Below are positions 4,949 through 64,000 of a stretch of 64,000 bases of DNA, one piece after another. A model generated the notes under the pieces. It was not told where the DNA came from and did no database searches. It saw nothing but the letters and a program-made list of their open reading frames with translations. Source of the stretch: an uncultured Candidatus Saccharibacteria bacterium. GTDB lineage: Bacteria > Patescibacteriota > Minisyncoccia > Phycocordibacterales > UBA12079. Each line of letters opens with the position of its first letter. The stretch's first letter is position 1. The stretch is from NCBI GenBank assembly GCA_964459145.1, contig CAYWKC010000001.1:40200-104199 (forward strand). The letters are read 5' to 3'. Made by a program: the position numbers and the translations under genes.

Positions 4949-4956
4949 AATGTGTT

Positions 4957-5470
4957 CTTTTATATCTATAAGCCGGATTCTGTTTACCCGACCATCGTAA
5001 AATGGTTTAGGGTTTGATAGCCATTTATCTAGGAAGATTGTTACCAATCTTCTCAAGCGGTACTTCCGGCACCACTTTTTTGAGAAGTTAAACTTCTCAA
5101 AAAAGTGGTGCCGGACACGACCTTGCACTTAGGTAAGGATTTAGCCGTTTCACCCCCTCACCCAGAACAGTGCCAACAAATTAAAATTTGTCAAAAATTA
5201 ACTAAATTTTAATTTACCATTAGGGACTGTTTTTGTGCTATTTTATGTTTGCAAAGCAAACAGCACTGTTCTGGGTGAGGGACTACACCCCCGAAAGGAT
5301 GCCTAAAATTCTTTCGAATTTTAGCGTCTCTGCTCGCACCTCTACAACCACAAAGTTGACGACGGGCGTTACCCGCTACCTTGCTCCGAGCACCAAAATA
5401 GTGCTGGAAGTGTCCGGACTTTCCTCCAAGCCTTATAAAAATAAGGCCCAGTAACTATCCGATATAAAAG
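4957..5470 (-). ncRNA. rnpB: RNase P RNA (bacterial type A) with large insertions
   Basis: Minus strand shows GGAGGAAAGTCCGGAC (P4 5' strand), GGTAACGCCCG (P10/11), ACAGAATCCGGCTTAT (P4 3' strand) and a P1 pairing CTTTTATATC/GATATAAAAG. A TAGTATAAT -10 box lies just upstream on the minus strand. Confidence 0.8.
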
Positions 5471-5636
5471 AACATTCTTATATTATACTATAAATCTAAT
5501 TTAGATGTAAAGAGTGGACAAACGATCTAAAAAGTGTTATTGCTCCTAATAGCAAGAGGAAAATGTATGTTTATATTCTAATCCCTTTGTCTGATGATGG
5601 GGGGAAAAAGGAGAAATGAGTTCATAAAGGTGAAAG

Positions 5637-5669
5637 GGTGGGATTGCGGAAGCAATTCCACCTTTTTTT
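5637..5669 (+). terminator. intrinsic terminator without an obvious upstream gene
   Basis: GGTGGGATTGC-ggaa-GCAATTCCACC followed by TTTTTTT. Confidence 0.45.
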
Positions 5670-5707
5670 GTTTTATTATCCAATAAAGATATAGTATAAT
5701 ATGCTAT

Positions 5708-6933: not shown

Positions 6934-8067
6934 ATGAAAATAGTATTAGCAGGGGGGGGAACAGGGGGTCATTTTTATCCCTTGATAGCAGTGGCTGAAA
7001 AAATTAATAAATTGGTGGAAGAGAGGAAACTCTTAAAACCACAGATTTATTACTTATCCAATGCACCTTATGATAAAAAAATGTTATTTGAAAATGACAT
7101 TATTTTTAAAAAGGTGTCAGCGGGGAAATTAAGGCGGTATTTTTCTGTGCTAAATCTTTTCGGTTTGTTTAAAACGGGGTGGGGATTTATAAAATCATTC
7201 TTTTTGGTTTTCAGTATTTTTCCAGATGTTGTTTTTAGCAATGGTGGCAATGCAAGTTTCCCTGTCTTATTAAGTGCCAAAATTTTTAGGATTCCTGTTT
7301 TAATTCATATTTCTGATACAGTGCCTGGAAGAACCAATGCTTGGGCGGCTAAGTTTGCCAAGAAAGTCTCTTTAGGTTTTTCTGAAGCAGAAGAATTCCT
7401 ATCAATAAAAAAAGATAAAATAGCTGTTTTGGGGAATCCAGTCAGAAAAGAGTTAATGAAACCGCTTTCAGAAGGAGCGAGAGAATTTTTGGATTTAAGT
7501 GAGGGTATCCCAGTGATTTTGATTTTAGGGGGGTCAAGCGGTTCTCAAGCTATCAACGAAAGTATTGTTGATGCTTTACCTGAGTTAGTCCAAAAATACC
7601 AAATAATTCACCAGACAGGAAAACAAGGAATCACTGAAGTAGAAAATAGGGCAAGAGTCGTTTTAGAAAATAGTGAATATAAAGAGAGATATAAAGTTTT
7701 TGCTTATCTTAACACCTTGGCTTTGAGAATGTCAGCGGGCATAGCTGATTTAGTTATTTCCAGAGCGGGAGCTGGTTCTATTTCAGAAATAGCTCTTTGG
7801 GGATTACCAAGTATTGTTATTCCGATCCCTGAAGAAGTCAGTAGTGATCAAAGAAAAAATGCTTTTTCTTTTGCTCGAGCTGGGGCAACAGTTGTTATTG
7901 AGCAAGGAAATTTAACTACCCATATTCTCTTATCAGAAATAAAACATTTGATGGAAAATGAGACAAAAAGAAAGGAATTAGGAGAAAATGCTAAAAAGTT
8001 TGCAAAAGCAGATGCAGCTGAAAAAATTGCTCGAGGAATTCTTAATTTAGCTTTGGAACATGAATAA
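6934..8067 (+). CDS. murG: UDP-GlcNAc:lipid I GlcNAc transferase MurG
   Basis: MKIVLAGGGTGGHFYP N-terminal G-loop; GT28 C-terminal domain. Confidence 0.9.
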   Translation: MKIVLAGGGTGGHFYPLIAVAEKINKLVEERKLLKPQIYYLSNAPYDKKMLFENDIIFKKVSAGKLRRYFSVLNLFGLFKTGWGFIKSFFLVFSIFPDVVFSNGGNASFPVLLSAKIFRIPVLIHISDTVPGRTNAWAAKFAKKVSLGFSEAEEFLSIKKDKIAVLGNPVRKELMKPLSEGAREFLDLSEGIPVILILGGSSGSQAINESIVDALPELVQKYQIIHQTGKQGITEVENRARVVLENSEYKERYKVFAYLNTLALRMSAGIADLVISRAGAGSISEIALWGLPSIVIPIPEEVSSDQRKNAFSFARAGATVVIEQGNLTTHILLSEIKHLMENETKRKELGENAKKFAKADAAEKIARGILNLALEHE

Positions 8068-9400
8068 TTCAACAAAAATTATTACAAGATTTCCACCTTC
8101 TCCAACAGGATTTTTCCATATTGGAAGTGCTAGGACAGCTTTGTTTAATTATCTTTTTGCTACACAAAATAAGGGAGAAATGATAGTTCGGATTGAAGAT
8201 ACTGACCAAAGTAGGTCAAAAACAGAATATGAAAAAGATATTTTTGAAAGTTTGGTTTGGTTAGGTTTTAAATTTGATGAAAAGAAAATTCACAAACAGT
8301 CGGAAAAAAAAGAAATTTATAAAAAATACTTGAAAAAAATGATAGCAGAAGGGCGAGCTTTTGAAAGAGAGATTTCTCAAGAGGGAAGTGGAAAAGTGAT
8401 TCGCTTTAAAAATCCCAATAAAGAAATTATTTTTGATGACATTATCAGAGGAGAGATTAAATTTGATACTAGTGAATTGGGAGATTTTATTATTGCTAAA
8501 AGTTTAGAAGAACCACTTTATCACTTGGCAGTGGTAGTAGATGACGCGGAGAGCGGAGTAACCCATATTATCAGAGGAGAAGATGGAATTTCTAATACCC
8601 CACGGCAAATTTTAATTCAGGAAGCTCTTTGTTTTCCTCGGCCAGTTTATGCTCATTTACCCCTTATTTTGGTTTCTGATAAATCAAAAATGTCTAAAAG
8701 ACACGGGGCGGTTTCTTTGAATGAATATAAAGCACGAGGTTATTTACCCGAAGCATTGCTTAATTATTTAGCGTTGATAGGTTGGAATCCAGGGACAGAA
8801 CAAGAAATCTTTTCTCTTGATGAGTTGGTGAAAAAATTTAATTTAGGAAAGGTGCAAAAAGGAGGGGCTATTTTCAACCTAGAAAAATTAAATTGGATAA
8901 ATAGAGAACATCTTAAATTAATGTCTGACGAGAATTTTGGAAAAAGAGTGTTAGAATTTTTGCCAGACGAAATAAAAAAAATGGTTGTTGAAAATAAAGA
9001 AATGTTAATAAAAATTTTACCGGTATTACGAGAGAGAATAGAAAAATTTGGTGATGTTAAGACAATGGCAGAGACAGGGGAGTTAGCCTATTATTTTTCT
9101 CAACCAGAATATGCTGGAGAAAAATTATTATGGAAAGATGAAACTGATTTAATTAATGTTAAAAAACATTTAGAGAAAGTTATTAAGTTGCTTGATGGGG
9201 TTCAAGAATGGACAGCCGAAAATATTAAATTAGCACTTTGGGATTATGCAACGGAACAGGGAAGGGGGGTTGTTTTGTGGCCAATGAGATATGCTCTGTC
9301 AGGTAAGGAAAAATCGCCTGATCCATTTGTTTTAGCTGAAATTTTTGGTCAGCAGGAAACTCTTAGGCGTTTGCAATATGCAATTGGAAAAATTAATTAA
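8060..9400 (+). CDS. gltX: glutamyl-tRNA synthetase
   Basis: RFPPSPTGFFHIGSARTALFNY (HIGH region) and KMSKRHG (KMSKS). Confidence 0.9.
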   Translation: MNNSTKIITRFPPSPTGFFHIGSARTALFNYLFATQNKGEMIVRIEDTDQSRSKTEYEKDIFESLVWLGFKFDEKKIHKQSEKKEIYKKYLKKMIAEGRAFEREISQEGSGKVIRFKNPNKEIIFDDIIRGEIKFDTSELGDFIIAKSLEEPLYHLAVVVDDAESGVTHIIRGEDGISNTPRQILIQEALCFPRPVYAHLPLILVSDKSKMSKRHGAVSLNEYKARGYLPEALLNYLALIGWNPGTEQEIFSLDELVKKFNLGKVQKGGAIFNLEKLNWINREHLKLMSDENFGKRVLEFLPDEIKKMVVENKEMLIKILPVLRERIEKFGDVKTMAETGELAYYFSQPEYAGEKLLWKDETDLINVKKHLEKVIKLLDGVQEWTAENIKLALWDYATEQGRGVVLWPMRYALSGKEKSPDPFVLAEIFGQQETLRRLQYAIGKIN

Positions 9401-10712
9401 AATTAAAGCAAGGTTTTTTGCTTGGAAGAGTAATTTTCAAGTGGGGATTTTGTTGGTATTAGTGGCAGGAATAATTTGTCCAATCGGTATAAGGGCTGAC
9501 CAGATTGATGAATTGAAAGCAGAAATTTCTAAGAGAAGTGTAGAGATGAATGTCTTGGAAGAGGAAATTGCTACTTGGGAAAAAGAAATTGAAATTATTG
9601 GTCAAGAAAAGCAAAGTTTGGACAGAGATATTAAACAATTAGATACCACTCAAAAAAAATTAAATTCCAGTATTTACTTAACCAGTAACCAGATAAATAC
9701 CACCAGTTTAAAAATTGAAGAATTAGCCATTGGGATAGATGAAAAAAAAGACGAAATTGAAAAAAATTCGAGGGCTTTAGCGGAAGCTCTACGGTCAATT
9801 AATGAACAAGAAAGTTATTCTCTGCTGGAATCTATGTTGTCTAACGATAAGTTGTCAGAGTTTTGGAATGATTTAGAAGGTTTGCAAAAAGTGCAGACAG
9901 AAATAAGAAACAAGACCAGTGTTTTGAAAGAATTAAAAGAAGAATTGACTGTTGATAAACAACAGTCAGAAGAAGAGAAAGAAGATTTGTCTTCATATAA
10001 AATAAAATTGGCTGATCAGAAAGAAATCGTAGAAAATAATCAAGAAGAAAAAAGTAAATTACTTACGGAAACAAAAAACAAAGAATCAAATTATCAAACA
10101 ATTTTGGATGAGAAAAAAGCATTAAGGGACCAGTTTGAGGCAGAATTGATGGAGTATGAGAATCAGCTAAGATTGGTGATTGACCCTAATAGTATTCCTG
10201 TAGCGGGACATATTTTATCATGGCCAGTAGAGAATGTTTACATCACTCAATTTTTTGGCCATACACCTTTTGCTACTGCTAATCCGCAAGTATATGGAGA
10301 GGGGGGGCACAATGGAGTTGATTTTCGGGCGTCTATCGGGACAAATATAAAAACAGTACTGAGTGGAACTGTGACAGCGGTAGGAAACACAGATATTAAT
10401 TGTCCGGGAGCTTCTTATGGCAAGTGGGTTTTAGTAAGACATAATAATGGATTGTCTTCTTTGTATGCGCATTTATCTTTGATTAAAGTTTCAGTGGGGC
10501 AGGTGTTAGTGACAGGGGATACAGTTGGTTATAGCGGAAATACTGGATACTCCACTGGTCCTCATTTGCATTTAACTATTTATGCAACAGAAGGAGTTGA
10601 GGTAAAAGAATATCCTTTTAAGAGTTGTAAGGGAGCAACAACAATTATGCCTTTGGTTACTCGTCGAGACGCCTATTTAAATCCCTTGTCTTATTTACCA
10701 GAGTACAAGTAG
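9378..10712 (+). CDS. M23 (LytM-type) metallopeptidase with N-terminal coiled coil, EnvC-like
   Basis: Long coiled-coil N-terminus; C-terminal GHNGVDF...HLH M23 motifs. Start moved to the internal ATG at 9378 to avoid overlap with gltX. Confidence 0.75.
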   Translation: MQLEKLIKIKARFFAWKSNFQVGILLVLVAGIICPIGIRADQIDELKAEISKRSVEMNVLEEEIATWEKEIEIIGQEKQSLDRDIKQLDTTQKKLNSSIYLTSNQINTTSLKIEELAIGIDEKKDEIEKNSRALAEALRSINEQESYSLLESMLSNDKLSEFWNDLEGLQKVQTEIRNKTSVLKELKEELTVDKQQSEEEKEDLSSYKIKLADQKEIVENNQEEKSKLLTETKNKESNYQTILDEKKALRDQFEAELMEYENQLRLVIDPNSIPVAGHILSWPVENVYITQFFGHTPFATANPQVYGEGGHNGVDFRASIGTNIKTVLSGTVTAVGNTDINCPGASYGKWVLVRHNNGLSSLYAHLSLIKVSVGQVLVTGDTVGYSGNTGYSTGPHLHLTIYATEGVEVKEYPFKSCKGATTIMPLVTRRDAYLNPLSYLPEYK

Positions 10713-10839
10713 GTTTCTTGGTATCAGAATTGAAAAATAACGGAAGATTGACAATATCGTGAAGTTTTGATTGAATGAGAGAGGAAAAAGGGTAGTTCAT
10801 TTTAGATATATTGAGGGTGTTTTTTAAACCGTTAACTTT

Positions 10840-14020: not shown

Positions 14021-14452
14021 ATGAAAAATTGTAAATTAAAAATCAAAAAACTGGATAGGGAAGCTACCCTACCCGATTATGCTTATCTGGGAGATGCTGG
14101 TTTAGACTTATATTCTAATACTAACATTTTAATTAAATCTTTTGAGAGAAAAGTTATTCCTACTGGAGTGGCTATGGAAATTCCAGATGGCTATGTCGGT
14201 TTGATTTGGGATAAAAGTAGTTTAGGAATCAAAGAAATTTTAAAAACTTTGGGGGGAGTGGTTGATAGTGGTTATCGTGGAGAGATTAAAGTAGGATTGG
14301 TTAATCTTTCTAAAAAAGATTTTCAAATCTCTAAAGGGCAAAAAATTGCTCAGATGATTATTCAAAAGAAAGAGGAAGTTAAGGTAAAAGAGGTGGACGA
14401 TTTATCTGAAAGTGAGAGGGGAACTAAAAAGTTTGGGAGTAGTAATAGATAG
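14021..14452 (+). CDS. dut: dUTP diphosphatase
   Basis: GDAGLDLYS, IPDGYVGLIWDKSS and GGVVDSGYRGEI dUTPase motifs. Confidence 0.85.
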   Translation: MKNCKLKIKKLDREATLPDYAYLGDAGLDLYSNTNILIKSFERKVIPTGVAMEIPDGYVGLIWDKSSLGIKEILKTLGGVVDSGYRGEIKVGLVNLSKKDFQISKGQKIAQMIIQKKEEVKVKEVDDLSESERGTKKFGSSNR

Positions 14453-22972: not shown

Positions 22973-23077
22973 TATAGTTTTTATTGGGGATTAATAAATT
23001 ACTTAATTACTCATTGTAAATAATAACATACATATATGTATAAAGTTATCCATATAGAATTTTAAAATAAAAAAATC

Positions 23078-23441
23078 ACCGATACCCGCTTATGCGTTGG
23101 AGTATCGGTGATTACTTAAAGCGGCCATGGCTTAGGTTGATCCGGCGAGGGATATTGATACCCCAGAGGATTCGTCCGTAAACCAAACCTGACCGAGGGA
23201 CAAAAGTAGGTTGAGAGAATCTTCCTCTCTCTGGCTTATCCGATGTTCGCAATCGCGTTGCGAAGGATAGGAGGCGCTCTGAATTTGAGAGCCCATCCAT
23301 GCGCCTGAGCCGTCTTTATCTTGGACAGGCGTCGGTGGGGATTATTTCTCCCCAGAATAATGGGCTGCACCGTTGTAGTTACGGCGGAAGGCGGCCTTAT
23401 CGCCAGCCATAAGCCCGTGTCCTCAAAACATTCTCTCAACC
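23078..23441 (-). ncRNA. unclassified GC-rich structured RNA with own promoter and terminator
   Basis: Minus strand has TTGACA-17-TATCAT (plus 23449-23477) and a terminator hairpin at 23086-23111 plus T-run. 13-bp long-range pairing GGGTTGAGAGAAT/ATTCTCTCAACC; G+C far above flanks; no coherent ORF. Confidence 0.4.
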
Positions 23442-23533
23442 CACCTGTATGATAAGACACAGTTTAATTATTGTCAAGCATTTTTATTTTCTTCCACACA
23501 GAAATAAGGGGGAAAAGCCAATTTTGAGGATTA

Positions 23534-23637
23534 AAATTTTTAACAAAAAAATTCCACTGTTTAACGACCTATTGGGAGGAGTTTGAAATTTTTAAGGAAT
23601 TGTTTTGTGGTGTTTCAACAAAAAATTTTTTACTGCT
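23534..23637 (+). repeat. repeat family copy B upstream of dnaB
   Basis: AATTTTTAACAAAAAAATTCCACTGTTTAACGACCTATTGGGAGGAGTTTGAAATTTTTAAGGAATTGTTTTGTGG...TACTGCT. Confidence 0.65.
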
Positions 23638-23747
23638 CAAAAATTAGCTTCTTTCCTTATTTCTTTTACATTTATCCCCTCTCTATCCCCTCTTTTTTCC
23701 CTATTTTCCATCTTTTGAAATTTAACAATTATGATAAAATACAAAAT

Positions 23748-25148
23748 ATGGAAGTGATTAATAATAATCCTAATTTAAGAATTCCTCCTCAAAACATTGA
23801 TTCCGAAAAGGCCTTGTTGGGTTCTATTATGTTAAGACCAGAAGTCATCTATGATGTTTTAGATATTATTTCTGAAGATTGTTTCTATTCTGAAAAACAT
23901 CGCATTGTGTTCAAAGCAATGTTAGATTTATTTTCTAAAAAAGAACCGATTGATTTATTAACTTTATCTTCAATTCTGAAAGAACAAAAACAATTAGAAC
24001 AAATTGGTGGAACTACTTTTTTGACAGAATTAGTAGAAACAGTTCCCTCTTCAGCCAATGCTGAACACTACGCTAAAATTGTTCACAAAAAATATATGAT
24101 GCGACGATTGATTGGAGCGGGAGAAGAAATTTCCAATTTGGGTTATAACGAAACAGAAAATTTGGAGATAGCTTTAGACAAAGCGGAAAAAAGTATTTTT
24201 ACTGTAACGGGGTCTTTGATTTCCCGTTCTTTTATAAAAATAAAAGAGGCTTTAGGTGAAGCTTGGGAGAGATTGGATAGATTACATAAATCAGAAGGTA
24301 AATTAAGAGGAGTGCCAACTGGTTTTAAAGAATTAGATGATAAATTATCTGGTTTTCAAAATTCTGATTTAATTATTATCGCAGCTCGCCCTTCAATAGG
24401 AAAAACATCTTTGGCTCTTGATATTGCTAGAAAGGTGGCGATTAATTATAATTTGCCAGTCGCTATTTTTTCTTTAGAAATGAGTTCCCAACAATTAGTG
24501 GACAGAATGTTGGCGGCTGATTCTAATGTAGATGCTTGGAAATTAAGAACAGGACGGTTAACAAGAGATGAAGAATTCAATTCTATTAGGGAATCCCTGG
24601 ACCGTCTCTCTAAAGCCCCTATTTTTATAGATGACCAAGCTTCAAATAATATTTTGAATATGCGTTCGGTAGCCCGTAAGCTAAAAAGACAACATGGTTT
24701 GAAATTAATTATTGTTGATTATTTACAATTGATGGCACCGACTGAATCTAGAGGGTCTGATTCAATGGTACAACAGGTCACAGAAATTTCTCGCTCTCTT
24801 AAACATTTGGCTCGAGAATTAGATATACCAGTAATTGCTTTGTCCCAGTTAAGCCGAGCAGTAGAAAGTCGAGGGGGGCGTCCTCGATTGTCTGATTTGC
24901 GTGATTCTGGTTCTATTGAACAAGATGCTGATTTAGTAGCATTTATTCACAGAGAAAATAATGAAGATGGTTCGGGTAAATCATGTTTAGCCGAAATTTT
25001 GATAGAAAAACACAGAAATGGACCTACGGGAAAAGTAGAACTTAATTTTAATGAGAAGAAAGCTACCTTTCAGAGTGTAGAAAAAAATGATTTTAGTGAT
25101 TTTGCTATTAAAGAGGAAGAAGAAACTGAACAAAGCGATGATTTTTAA
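23748..25148 (+). CDS. dnaB: replicative DNA helicase DnaB
   Basis: N-terminal DnaB domain, Walker A (AARPSIGKTSLALDIA), H4 motif. Start set at MEVINNN; the upstream 55 codons of the ORF lie in the repeat element. Confidence 0.9.
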   Translation: MEVINNNPNLRIPPQNIDSEKALLGSIMLRPEVIYDVLDIISEDCFYSEKHRIVFKAMLDLFSKKEPIDLLTLSSILKEQKQLEQIGGTTFLTELVETVPSSANAEHYAKIVHKKYMMRRLIGAGEEISNLGYNETENLEIALDKAEKSIFTVTGSLISRSFIKIKEALGEAWERLDRLHKSEGKLRGVPTGFKELDDKLSGFQNSDLIIIAARPSIGKTSLALDIARKVAINYNLPVAIFSLEMSSQQLVDRMLAADSNVDAWKLRTGRLTRDEEFNSIRESLDRLSKAPIFIDDQASNNILNMRSVARKLKRQHGLKLIIVDYLQLMAPTESRGSDSMVQQVTEISRSLKHLARELDIPVIALSQLSRAVESRGGRPRLSDLRDSGSIEQDADLVAFIHRENNEDGSGKSCLAEILIEKHRNGPTGKVELNFNEKKATFQSVEKNDFSDFAIKEEEETEQSDDF

Positions 25149-28245: not shown

Positions 28246-28539
28246 GCTTACAAAGGAACTGTGGCAACAGAAAGTGGCGAAGAGGTTGGCTTCAAAATCA
28301 TCTTTGTCATTCCTCTCTCAAAACTCCTTGATGAAAGGTACGCCAGTTCAGATGTAGAGTTGACAGAGAAAAAAAGCCCTGCGGAGATTCGCCGCTTTCT
28401 CTATCTCGAGATACGCAGGAAGGGAAAAGAAGAAGAAATTTCAGATGTTGAATATCTTTCGTTTATGGAGATAATATGCCCTGAAATTTTCAAAAATTTC
28501 CGTCGGTATAGTTGGTTGCATAAAATGGTTAAGAGCTAG
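28213..28539 (+). CDS. hypothetical protein
   Basis: 108-aa ORF followed by a strong terminator (CCGCTCAACG...CGTTGAGCGG TTTT). Confidence 0.25.
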   Translation: MFQGDVIKHGHAYKGTVATESGEEVGFKIIFVIPLSKLLDERYASSDVELTEKKSPAEIRRFLYLEIRRKGKEEEISDVEYLSFMEIICPEIFKNFRRYSWLHKMVKS

Positions 28540-62826: not shown

Positions 62827-64000
62827 TTATATTTCAGTCGCCGATTCAGTTATATTATTTTCAATTGATTGTCCAGTTAAACCAGAAAGCGGAGCTTTCC
62901 CATTTCTAAGATTTTCTAAAATTGAGGAAATTGAAGTATCATTTGGAAGCAAACTTTGTAGATAATCAAAAACCTTAACAGCTTCTTCTCTCTCTCCAGT
63001 TTCACTATAACTTAACCCTAAAAGATAAATAGTATCAACTGAGTAAGGATTTAGATTAAAAGACTGCTCCAAAGAAGCAATGGCTTCTTTATAATCCCTT
63101 GTATTATATTCTAAAGCCCCCAACTGTAAAAAAGCTTGTGAATCGTTGGGAGTTACTTGGGTTAAGGTCTTAAGAATGTTAACTGCTCCTTCTTGATTTC
63201 CTCCATTTAATTCTATTTGAGATAATAAGTAATAAGCATCCGAATAATTGTTTTTCATTTGAATAGAGGTGTTTAAATATCCCTTAGCTTTTTCTACATC
63301 ACCATTAGCAATTTCTAAATTAGCCAGAGACAAAGCAATTAAGGGATTATATGGGTTAAAAATGATAGCATTACTGTAAGATTTCAACGCATTATCATAA
63401 GCCCCTTCAATTTTTAAGGGAACAACCGATCTATAAACATTTCCTAAAGACAACCAATTTTGATAATTTTTTGAATCTTTACTTATAGCAGTATTCGCAT
63501 TAGTAATAGCGCTATCAAGAGCTGTTTGAAATTGTTTTGCCACTGTCTCCTCGGCAACATCTGTTTGGTTCAAAACCGCTTGTAATTGAAATATATTAAT
63601 ATTGGATAATAGCCGATAATATAAATCATAACCTGAATTTTTGGCAGCTTTTTCCATTAATTCAACAGATTTTCCTAAATCTCCTTCTGAGTTTAGAGCC
63701 AAAAAACTTTTTTGTGCTTGAAAAGAGGCATTGGTTTTATTGATAAATAAAAACATCCCAAACATAGATAACAAAAGAAACCCTGCCATAACAACGAGAA
63801 AAATAAAACCTTTTCCTCTATTTTTTAATAATGAAATAACTTCTACTTTGACTATTTTTTCTTGATAAAACAAAGATAACAACAAACCAGAAAATAAGAA
63901 ACTTAAACTTAGAACGACAATTCCTGGAACATAAATAAATGAAAATACCCATAAGTAAATAGTGGCTGAAAAAACTGACCAAGCAATATATCGGTCAAAT
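62827..64000 (-). CDS. polytopic membrane protein with C-terminal TPR repeats (N-terminus outside window)
   Basis: Reading frame stays open to the window edge upstream of the listed TTG start; the extra N-terminal segment is hydrophobic. The C-terminal 300 aa are TPR repeats. Confidence 0.55.
   Translation of the reverse strand, partial: FDRYIAWSVFSATIYLWVFSFIYVPGIVVLSLSFLFSGLLLSLFYQEKIVKVEVISLLKNRGKGFIFLVVMAGFLLLSMFGMFLFINKTNASFQAQKSFLALNSEGDLGKSVELMEKAAKNSGYDLYYRLLSNINIFQLQAVLNQTDVAEETVAKQFQTALDSAITNANTAISKDSKNYQNWLSLGNVYRSVVPLKIEGAYDNALKSYSNAIIFNPYNPLIALSLANLEIANGDVEKAKGYLNTSIQMKNNYSDAYYLLSQIELNGGNQEGAVNILKTLTQVTPNDSQAFLQLGALEYNTRDYKEAIASLEQSFNLNPYSVDTIYLLGLSYSETGEREEAVKVFDYLQSLLPNDTSISSILENLRNGKAPLSGLTGQSIENNITESATEI

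Follow-up and report, generated by a model that had tools for sequence, protein, structure and literature searches.

The minus strand of the DNA analyzed here, a 64-kb stretch of contig CAYWKC010000001.1 (hereafter, the window, meaning the whole of this stretch), carries between cysS and dnaB a locus (23069-23477) that appears to encode a structured non-coding RNA of a previously uncatalogued family, confined to a single clade of Paceibacteria. These organisms belong to the Patescibacteria, or candidate phyla radiation (CPR), a large group of mostly uncultured, ultra-small bacteria, and the closest DnaB relatives of the window are Paceibacteria/Campbellbacteria-like Patescibacteria. On one side of the RNA gene lie a corA-like gene, cysS and then a secreted-protein gene, and on the other side, dnaB and recR. 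The locus stands out by its base composition, with 51.3% G+C over positions 23068-23443 compared to 32.8% for the entire window. A preliminary description of this DNA had singled out the same region as a G+C island that contains no coherent open reading frame (ORF) and encodes an unclassified structured RNA of roughly 360 nucleotides (nt), with a near-consensus promoter, a strong terminator and a 13-bp pairing between its 5' end and a segment about 210 nt away. These claims withstood the analysis reported below.

From its consensus signals, the locus is predicted to be an independent transcription unit (Table 1). The promoter is the only site of its kind in the 1.5 kb scanned, and weaker promoter-like sites in that region do not rise above chance. 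Transcription would start at a G at approximately 23442-23444, that is, at the first base of the closing helix of the RNA, P1. The downstream terminator was passed over by the automatic terminator scanner, which has a loop limit of 8 nt, solely on account of its 15-nt loop. The predicted transcript of the window copy is 376 nt long (from about 23443 to about 23069). The conserved core accounts for only 237 nt of this length (23443-23207), and the rest consists of a lineage-specific 3' domain (23206-23114) and the terminator, so that the window copy is composite.

Homologs of this RNA were found by three routes. Anchoring at dnaB in GTDB genomes yielded loci L001 and L002; scanning JGI metagenomes with an exact 18-mer from the most conserved block yielded at least four further distinct sequences (L081, L082, L085 and L089), along with unrelated chance matches; and contigs encoding close DnaB relatives contributed the divergent L102, L104 (identical to L088) and L105, which resembles L085 and is cut by the contig end. 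The L082 copy is identical to those of L088, L090 and L092. Altogether, the family includes at least eight distinct sequences, each with its own promoter and terminator, that range in length from about 230 nt, terminator included (L088), to 464 nt (L102). In every homolog, TTGACA and a TATAAT-like hexamer are located at the same distance from P1, such that transcription would begin at the closing helix, and a GC-rich hairpin followed by a U-run terminates the transcript.

The minimum free energy (MFE) of the 376-nt RNA is -145.4 kcal/mol (z = -5.6), and none of 100 dinucleotide shuffles was as stable. When the eight cores (195-293 nt) were folded separately, the MFE structures shared one layout, namely, P1, followed by P2 with a variable domain, then Px with P3 and P4/P4a, and finally a purine-rich strand. 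P1 is present in the MFE fold as a helix of 13-14 bp between segments about 210 nt apart (23443-23430 and 23220-23207). At the junction of P1 and P2, there are 0 nt on the 5' side, and the structured Px/P3/P4 domain of about 90 nt is located on the 3' side. A linker of two nucleotides (AG) separates P2 from Px, and Px (CUC-A-GGC/GCC-A-GAG), which encloses P3 and P4/P4a, is predicted outright in the MFE folds of L002, L082, L085 and L089. The model that emerges from these folds is a three-way junction in which P1 would be stacked on P2, with the Px arm emanating from the junction and the AGGAAG strand closing it. A reading of CAUGG...CCUAUC as a GAAA-tetraloop receptor was considered and rejected, given that this motif demands a continuation of the flanking helices that is not seen here.

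Two parts of the molecule differ greatly among the homologs. The hypervariable domain carried by P2 spans 60-160 nt in the homologs, and the window version is alignable only with that of L102. The 3' extension is common to the window and L102 only and is absent in six homologs, where the terminator directly follows P1. In L102 and the window, the extension contains the same GGGGUAUCAAUAYCCC hairpin within a helix whose differences between the two are compensatory, and it is followed by the same terminator; L102 bears a further insertion of about 120 nt.

Table 1. Features of the RNA locus and related sites. Coordinates are those of the window unless a locus is named; (-) and (+) denote strands.
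Feature	Coordinates	Strand	Description and basis
Promoter, sigma-70-type	23449..23477	(-)	TTGACA 23477-23472, 17-nt spacer, TATCAT 23454-23449; 11 of 12 consensus matches
P1 5' strand (closing helix)	23430..23443	(-)	UGGGUUGAGAGAAU; MFE folds
P2 5' strand	23425..23429	(-)	GUUUU (GUCUUUU in most homologs); abuts P1 directly
Hypervariable domain on P2	23318..23424	(-)	Multi-helix, GC-rich; alignments and folds
P2 3' strand	23312..23317	(-)	AAAGAC (AAAGAGAC in most homologs)
Px 5' strand	23303..23309	(-)	CUCAGGC; invariant in 8 of 8 sequences
P3 hairpin	23270..23298	(-)	GG..GG-GCUCU / AGAGC-CC..CC; in the MFE fold of all sequences
P4 with enclosed P4a hairpin	23237..23269	(-)	P4 UAUCC / GGAUA; P4a UUCGCAA-CGCGA-UUGCGAA
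Px 3' strand	23229..23235	(-)	GCCAGAG; MFE folds and alignment
Purine-rich junction strand	23221..23228	(-)	AGAGGAAG; AGGAAG invariant in 8 of 8; unpaired in most MFE folds
P1 3' strand	23207..23220	(-)	AUUCUCUCAACCUA; MFE folds and alignment
3' extension domain	23114..23206	(-)	Long helix and GGGGUAUCAAUAUCCC hairpin; alignment and folds of window and L102
Intrinsic terminator	23069..23113	(-)	12-bp stem AAUCACCGAUAC/GUAUCGGUGAUU, 15-nt loop, then U7
One-mismatch matches to CTTCCTCTCTC	10777-10787, 14368-14378	(-)	Complement of the purine tract
One-mismatch matches to CTTCCTCTCTC	28309-28319, 62982-62992	(+)	Complement of the purine tract
Second small RNA unit	L081:936-1090, L088:8130-8257	(+)	nhmmer
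Second small RNA unit	L104:817-944, L102:720-859, L001:3207-3327	(-)	nhmmer

Comparison of the homologs suggests that the fold is shared across the family. Because full-sequence MAFFT alignments were not structurally sound, with misaligned helices, they were replaced by a hand-curated alignment of the eight sequences (156 columns), from which bulges, loops and the variable domain were removed, with N in place of gaps. In this alignment, standard pairs occupy 97.8% of 365 cells, compared to 81.5% when the 3' partners were shuffled among sequences; when the partners were slid by 1-3 columns as a control, only 34-53% of the cells paired. Double-sided changes occur at 24 of the 52 pairs, a value reached in none of 500 shuffles. 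Across the eight sequences, P1 has 99% of its cells paired, with changes on both sides at 10 of 16 pairs, and P3, its three segments taken together, has all of its cells paired and double-sided changes at 6 of 11 pairs; in P4a, 5 of 7 pairs are compensatory. In P2, 2 of 7 pairs are compensatory, both contributed by L102, and the window version of this helix carries a matched two-sided deletion of 2 bp; in P4, L102 is the source of all the changes, one of them compensatory and two from U-A to U-G. Px pairs in 100% of the cells with zero variation and hence offers no covariation test. The search for covariation in orthologous regions, which the preliminary description had proposed as a check, thus recovered both homologs and strong covariation in favor of a common fold.

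Approximately 45 nucleotides at the junction are almost invariant, whereas free covariation is seen in the peripheral helices. In the RNA, blocks of 17 and 21 nt are identical in 7 of the 8 members, although the CysRS proteins of the same genomes are only 62-70% identical, which implies that the core is under strong constraint wherever the gene is kept. We provisionally define the family by the motifs GAAU|GU.., CUCAG..GGC, GCC..GAG and AGGAAG|AUUC at the P1/P2/Px junction, together with the promoter, the terminator and the site between cysS and dnaB. The window copy bears every one of these elements, and it scores 44 bits (E = 1e-9) against the family model R1, although the window copy was itself one of the sequences used to build that model.

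None of the known RNA families accounts for the locus. When the 64-kb window was compared to the 4227 covariance models of Rfam 15 at gathering thresholds, the only matches were one bacterial RNase P RNA (4953-5470) and seven tRNAs, all located elsewhere, in accord with the earlier statement that the locus lacks RNase P motifs. At E<=10, the locus itself produced only noise (terminator look-alikes and miRNA or snoRNA models), the homologs L088 and L089 produced noise or nothing, and six homologous loci searched at gathering thresholds contained tRNAs only. The HEARO model matched neither the window nor, at E<=10, the locus. The coding potential is equally unconvincing. The five short overlapping ORFs of the locus (43-74 codons for amino acids), none of them coherent, were compared to the homologs using tblastn, and none was conserved; the matches were patches of 10-26 residues that coincide with the invariant nucleotide blocks and fall in two overlapping frames as well as on both strands, and in the comparison with L102, patches of about 50 residues appeared on opposite strands. 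This pattern reflects conservation of nucleotides, not of protein, and the coding hypothesis was rejected. Neither an Rfam match nor conserved coding potential turned up, and literature searches on CPR, Parcubacteria and Paceibacteria returned no lineage-specific structured RNA. We are highly confident that this is a genuine new structured non-coding RNA gene.

A divergent tmRNA, signal recognition particle (SRP) RNA or 6S RNA that has escaped the Rfam models in the CPR would explain several properties of the locus. A length of about 200-460 nt, a G+C island in an AT-rich genome and a promoter and terminator of its own give it the look of a tmRNA or 6S gene; no tmRNA, SRP RNA or 6S RNA was detected in the 64-kb window with Rfam or, in the case of tmRNA, with ARAGORN, standard and permuted forms included; and the RNase P RNA of the window barely passes Rfam (105.8 bits against a gathering score of 100), such that CPR RNAs evidently can diverge widely. 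However, the tmRNA, SRP and 6S models yielded not even weak matches at E<=10 (locus, L088 and L089), and the hallmarks of these RNAs are missing. The window copy, at about 375 nt and in a housekeeping neighborhood, resembles tmRNA (SsrA) in its gross features, but the family lacks a tRNA-like acceptor domain and a pseudoknot series, includes homologs with cores down to 195 nt, and has neither a T-arm motif (GGUUCGAnUCC) nor a CCA end nor a tag frame in any of the 8 members, as noted previously for the window copy; the partner of the 5' end in P1 is an internal segment, after which comes the terminator or the extension, not CCA. The SRP domain IV motif, already reported as missing, was not found, and the invariant blocks CUCAGGC and GGAUAAGCCAGAG enclose two hairpins rather than a tetraloop as in that domain. 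The family is similar to 6S RNA (SsrS) in its size of about 200 nt, the long helix through which the 5' and 3' ends close the molecule, the sigma-70 promoter and its non-essential character, and the abundant transcription and protein binding in trans that characterize 6S RNA may be presumed for the window RNA as well. However, 6S RNA is rod-shaped and imitates an open promoter by means of a large central bubble that is open on both sides, whereas the window RNA is predicted to be branched and strictly one-sided at P1/P2. Furthermore, tmRNA and SRP RNA are encoded by single-copy genes, essential or near-universal, in contrast to an RNA that is absent from the locus in close relatives. A universal RNA in disguise is, accordingly, a highly improbable identity for this family.

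The gene order bears directly on the possibility that the RNA is a cis-acting 5' leader, either a riboswitch or an attenuator, of the secreted-protein gene on the same strand (22972-21275). All copies of the family occupy one position in the order cysS, an optional secreted-protein gene, the RNA and dnaB. In the window and in L081, homologous secreted-protein genes are located about 95-225 nt downstream of the RNA on the same strand, and the terminator could serve as an expression platform. In 6 of the 8 loci (L001, L002, L085, L088, L089 and L102), however, the next downstream gene, cysS or another, is convergent, from which it follows that the RNA is not a 5' leader. In addition, L097 has the secreted-protein gene but not the RNA, L081 has a second promoter and a small RNA between the RNA and the secreted-protein gene, and an alternative anti-terminator pairing is not evident. 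The leader explanation is therefore largely refuted by the gene order in the six loci, and we consider it barely credible.

The distribution of the family is narrow and patchy. Searches adjacent to dnaB in 80 GTDB species of Paceibacteria, using nhmmer, fuzzy motifs and a covariance model, detected the RNA in the close clade only, and the covariance model derived from the curated alignment, run over 1.0 Mb comprising the window and related dnaB regions, found the nine known loci and nothing else, with no second copy in the window. In the DnaB tree, the RNA-bearing genomes all belong to one clade, with at least 86% identity to the window DnaB, and all loci outside this clade are devoid of the RNA. 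Genomes without the RNA are nevertheless interspersed in the clade: L097 is the sister of the window, and another group consists of L098, L099 and L100. In L097-L101, inside or beside the clade, the RNA is absent from the orthologous locus, within the roughly 8-13 kb seen per relative, so that a copy elsewhere is possible; the gap before dnaB in the empty loci is just 85-180 nt. Given that relatives inside the clade lack the gene at the same locus, the RNA appears to be dispensable, and the simplest history consistent with the tree would include one origin and at least two losses. The GC-rich islands upstream of dnaB in L003 and L004 were examined and are not clear homologs. In L003, outside the RNA-bearing clade, a promoter homologous to that of the window (AAAAATGCTTGACAA...TTATCCT; 5560-5672, minus strand) is followed by a short hairpin, GGUUGAG-CAGAAGAUAUUGGGA-CUCAACC, that resembles P1 without its interior and may be a deletion remnant, although the alignment is ambiguous.

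Patchy presence and absence within one clade is also what would be expected of RNA from a mobile or defense element, or its relic, such as retron msr/msd, a guide or bridge RNA of an insertion sequence (IS), or an omega RNA. The inverted repeat that closes the RNA and the hypervariable internal hairpin superficially resemble retron a1/a2 and msd, the RNA of L085 adjoins a transposase-like ORF, and an inverted repeat resembling a miniature inverted-repeat transposable element (MITE) is located beside the RNA in L102. These resemblances do not extend further. Retrons combine an adjacent reverse transcriptase with a1/a2 flanking msr and then msd, whereas here the domain order is reversed, with the long variable hairpin first, and no reverse transcriptase gene is present within 3-6 kb of any locus. 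Likewise, no IscB/TnpB, IS110 recombinase or cas gene, as would be expected next to an omega, bridge or tracrRNA, was found flanking any of the nine loci, where the neighbors are cysS, dnaB, recR and secreted proteins, and both ends of the RNA are locked in P1 or in the terminator, unlike a guide RNA with a variable end segment. The chromosomal position is fixed; comparison of filled and empty sites revealed no repeats, target-site duplications or terminal repeats at the boundaries; viral contigs and phage genomes gave no match to the RNA; and neither the L085 nor the L102 insertion recurs at any other locus. An origin in a mobile element thus seems very unlikely.

The purine-rich strand is invariant and, in most MFE folds, unpaired. 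Under one explanation, the RNA is a base-pairing small RNA in which the purine tract GAGAGAGGAAG is the seed for CU-rich mRNA sites, which would be complementary to GAGAGGAAG, or for the anti-Shine-Dalgarno sequence of 16S rRNA, the remaining fold being a scaffold. In L001, L002 and L081, the P4a loop UUUCCUCC can pair with GAGGAA(G) of the strand, which shows that it is available for Watson-Crick pairing, and the window and L102 may contain a comparable pseudoknot in their 3' extensions. Because L082, L085 and L089 lack it, such a pairing of the purine strand with a CU-rich loop, considered as a universal pseudoknot, was rejected as a family feature. The window contains four one-mismatch complements (CTTCCTCTCTC; Table 1), compared to 0.9 expected from shuffles, but none of these coincides with an evident ribosome-binding site or with a start site, and runs rich in CT are low-complexity sequence. 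Moreover, the conservation reaches helices P2, Px and P4, beyond what a seed would explain, and a multi-helix fold of 200-460 nt is unusually elaborate for a seed carrier. We regard this possibility as unlikely. The exposed GGA/AG strand beside stable helices, the dispensability of the gene and the proposed action in trans would also be reminiscent of CsrB/RsmZ and of (AG)n-rich ligands of Hfq; however, unlike CsrB/RsmZ, with its many repeated GGA hairpin loops, the window family has a single purine tract, and neither a CsrA nor an Hfq gene was identified in the sequence examined.

An invariant junction with a covarying periphery is typical of riboswitch aptamers and small ribozymes, and the fold is very stable. 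The RNA might instead be an orphan aptamer or ribozyme, trans-acting or self-processing, with the three-way junction as its active site. However, no Rfam ribozyme or riboswitch model matches, the junction strands (0 nt, AG and AGAGGAAG) are unlike the hammerhead core and are not known to match any other core, there is no downstream gene to control, and the invariance of whole helices fits the recognition of a protein or a nucleic acid better. This explanation appears improbable. In sum, the window RNA fails the tests by which tmRNA, SRP RNA, 6S RNA, RNase P RNA, riboswitches, retrons and transposon guide RNAs are recognized.

The closest analogies are with orphan bacterial RNAs of the raiA motif, OLE, ROOL and GOLLD classes, whose functions are obscure or have only lately begun to emerge and which are likewise stand-alone genes with their own promoter and terminator rather than leaders and combine a multi-helix fold, invariant junction nucleotides and covarying stems with a G+C island in an AT-rich genome. 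Such islands are the signature used in GC-IGR searches (PMC8632094, PMC11109978). The window RNA differs from these classes in that it has no Rfam 15 match to any of them, its phyletic range is far narrower, it is smaller than OLE, ROOL and GOLLD, and it occurs in the CPR.

Considering all these lines of evidence, the explanation that we consider best, with somewhat better than even confidence, is that the locus is an independent gene for a stable structured RNA of an uncatalogued family, limited to one Paceibacteria clade, that acts in trans as a binding platform. Under this scheme, the strong sigma-70 promoter would start transcription at the first base of P1, and the terminator would end the transcript just past the fold. 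Action in trans is the most likely mode because the junction is nearly invariant in contrast to its covarying periphery, and no gene is available for regulation in cis. The junction core would then be a specific binding platform for a protein, in a ribonucleoprotein (RNP) or a sequestering RNA comparable to 6S, CsrB, Y or raiA RNAs, or possibly for a small ligand; recognition of a macromolecule is favored over a small-ligand pocket because the invariance spans the junction strands together with helices P2, Px and P4. Among mechanisms, a protein-binding platform or sequestering RNA is the one that we favor, as a tentative proposal held at clearly less than even confidence. The RNA would be able to dispense with its variable domain and its 3' extension, both being expansions of a kind common in CPR RNAs.

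Several points weigh against this interpretation. Transcription is inferred from the consensus promoter and terminator signals only. The alignment was fitted by hand, and removal of bulges and loops biases it towards structure; the eight sequences come from about five lineages, and the statistics, which do not amount to a formal R-scape test, are suggestive. Px, the central helix of the model, is a product of thermodynamic prediction alone. The binding-platform mode is a best guess, and no gene consistently co-occurs with the RNA across the loci examined. Finally, a marginal or selfish element could likewise account for the narrow range and the repeated loss.

Additional features were observed around the locus and elsewhere in the window. 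Expansion segments are typical of CPR RNAs, and the RNase P RNA of the window (minus strand) is an example: it is of class A and 518 nt long, compared to a model of 367 positions, with large insertions of about 90 and 150 nt. Some 60-90 nt upstream of the dnaB start, at about 23655-23690 on the plus strand, there is a pair of DnaA-box-like motifs (TTATCC[A/C]C..TCTATCCCCT), which recurs at the same position in L001, L081, L088, L097 and L098, being kept with or without the RNA gene; this conservation suggests control of dnaB by DnaA. The RNA promoter diverges from this region. The mechanically called dnaB ORF (23583-25148, plus strand) begins with TTG at 23583, whereas homology places the true start at the ATG at 23748 (MEVINNNPNLRIPPQN...); the 55 codons ahead of this ATG, which coincide in part with the DnaA-box region, show no conservation.

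In several relatives, another small RNA unit, about 115 nt long and likewise unclassified, follows immediately downstream of the RNA and has a promoter and terminator of its own (AUCAGGAGAUCUUUUUGGGG...AGUAGCGACGAGCGAAGAG...GUCUCUUGAU; Table 1); this unit has no Rfam match and, by nhmmer, is absent from the window. A similar GCGACGAAGCGA string occurs in the GC-rich island upstream of dnaB in L004. In L085, a transposase-like ORF of 313 codons for amino acids (9021-9962, plus strand) is located about 30 nt upstream of the RNA promoter, at this locus only. In L102, a MITE-like element of about 150 nt (at approximately 1480-1640), with terminal inverted repeats of about 30 nt (AUCCUGAAAAGACNUUUUUGAUAAGC...), lies between dnaB and the RNA promoter. 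Loci of the L088/L085 type only (L088 at approximately 7400-7830, L104 and L105) contain, on the strand of the RNA, a small hydrophobic ORF of about 110 amino acids with a strong AAGGAGG ribosome-binding site, which stops about 10 nt before the -35 box of the RNA.

Taken together, these results describe a new family of a familiar kind, that is, a lineage-specific structured small RNA, and nothing yet indicates a new mechanism. A more far-reaching possibility is that of a new CPR-specific RNA class, be it a ribozyme, a metabolite sensor acting in trans or a lineage-specific RNP subunit, with the invariant three-way junction for an active site, a recent origin in Paceibacteria and rapid evolution through the accretion of expansion domains; we consider this speculative and unlikely, although, if true, one bacterial family would offer a rare view of how a complex structured RNA arises, becomes more elaborate and is lost. 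Should a partner protein or ligand be found, the family would represent a new RNA class, and otherwise, it would be one more orphan motif of narrow host range. The locus provides a lineage-specific structured RNA of the CPR with predicted ends, a structure backed by covariation and a core in which about 45 nt are invariant, and these properties make it directly testable. The family pairs this stable core with a domain that has been replaced almost wholesale between relatives, a 3' domain that appears to have been gained in one sub-lineage and, probably, at least two losses of the entire gene, and would be a compact natural example for the study of how structured RNAs expand and disappear.

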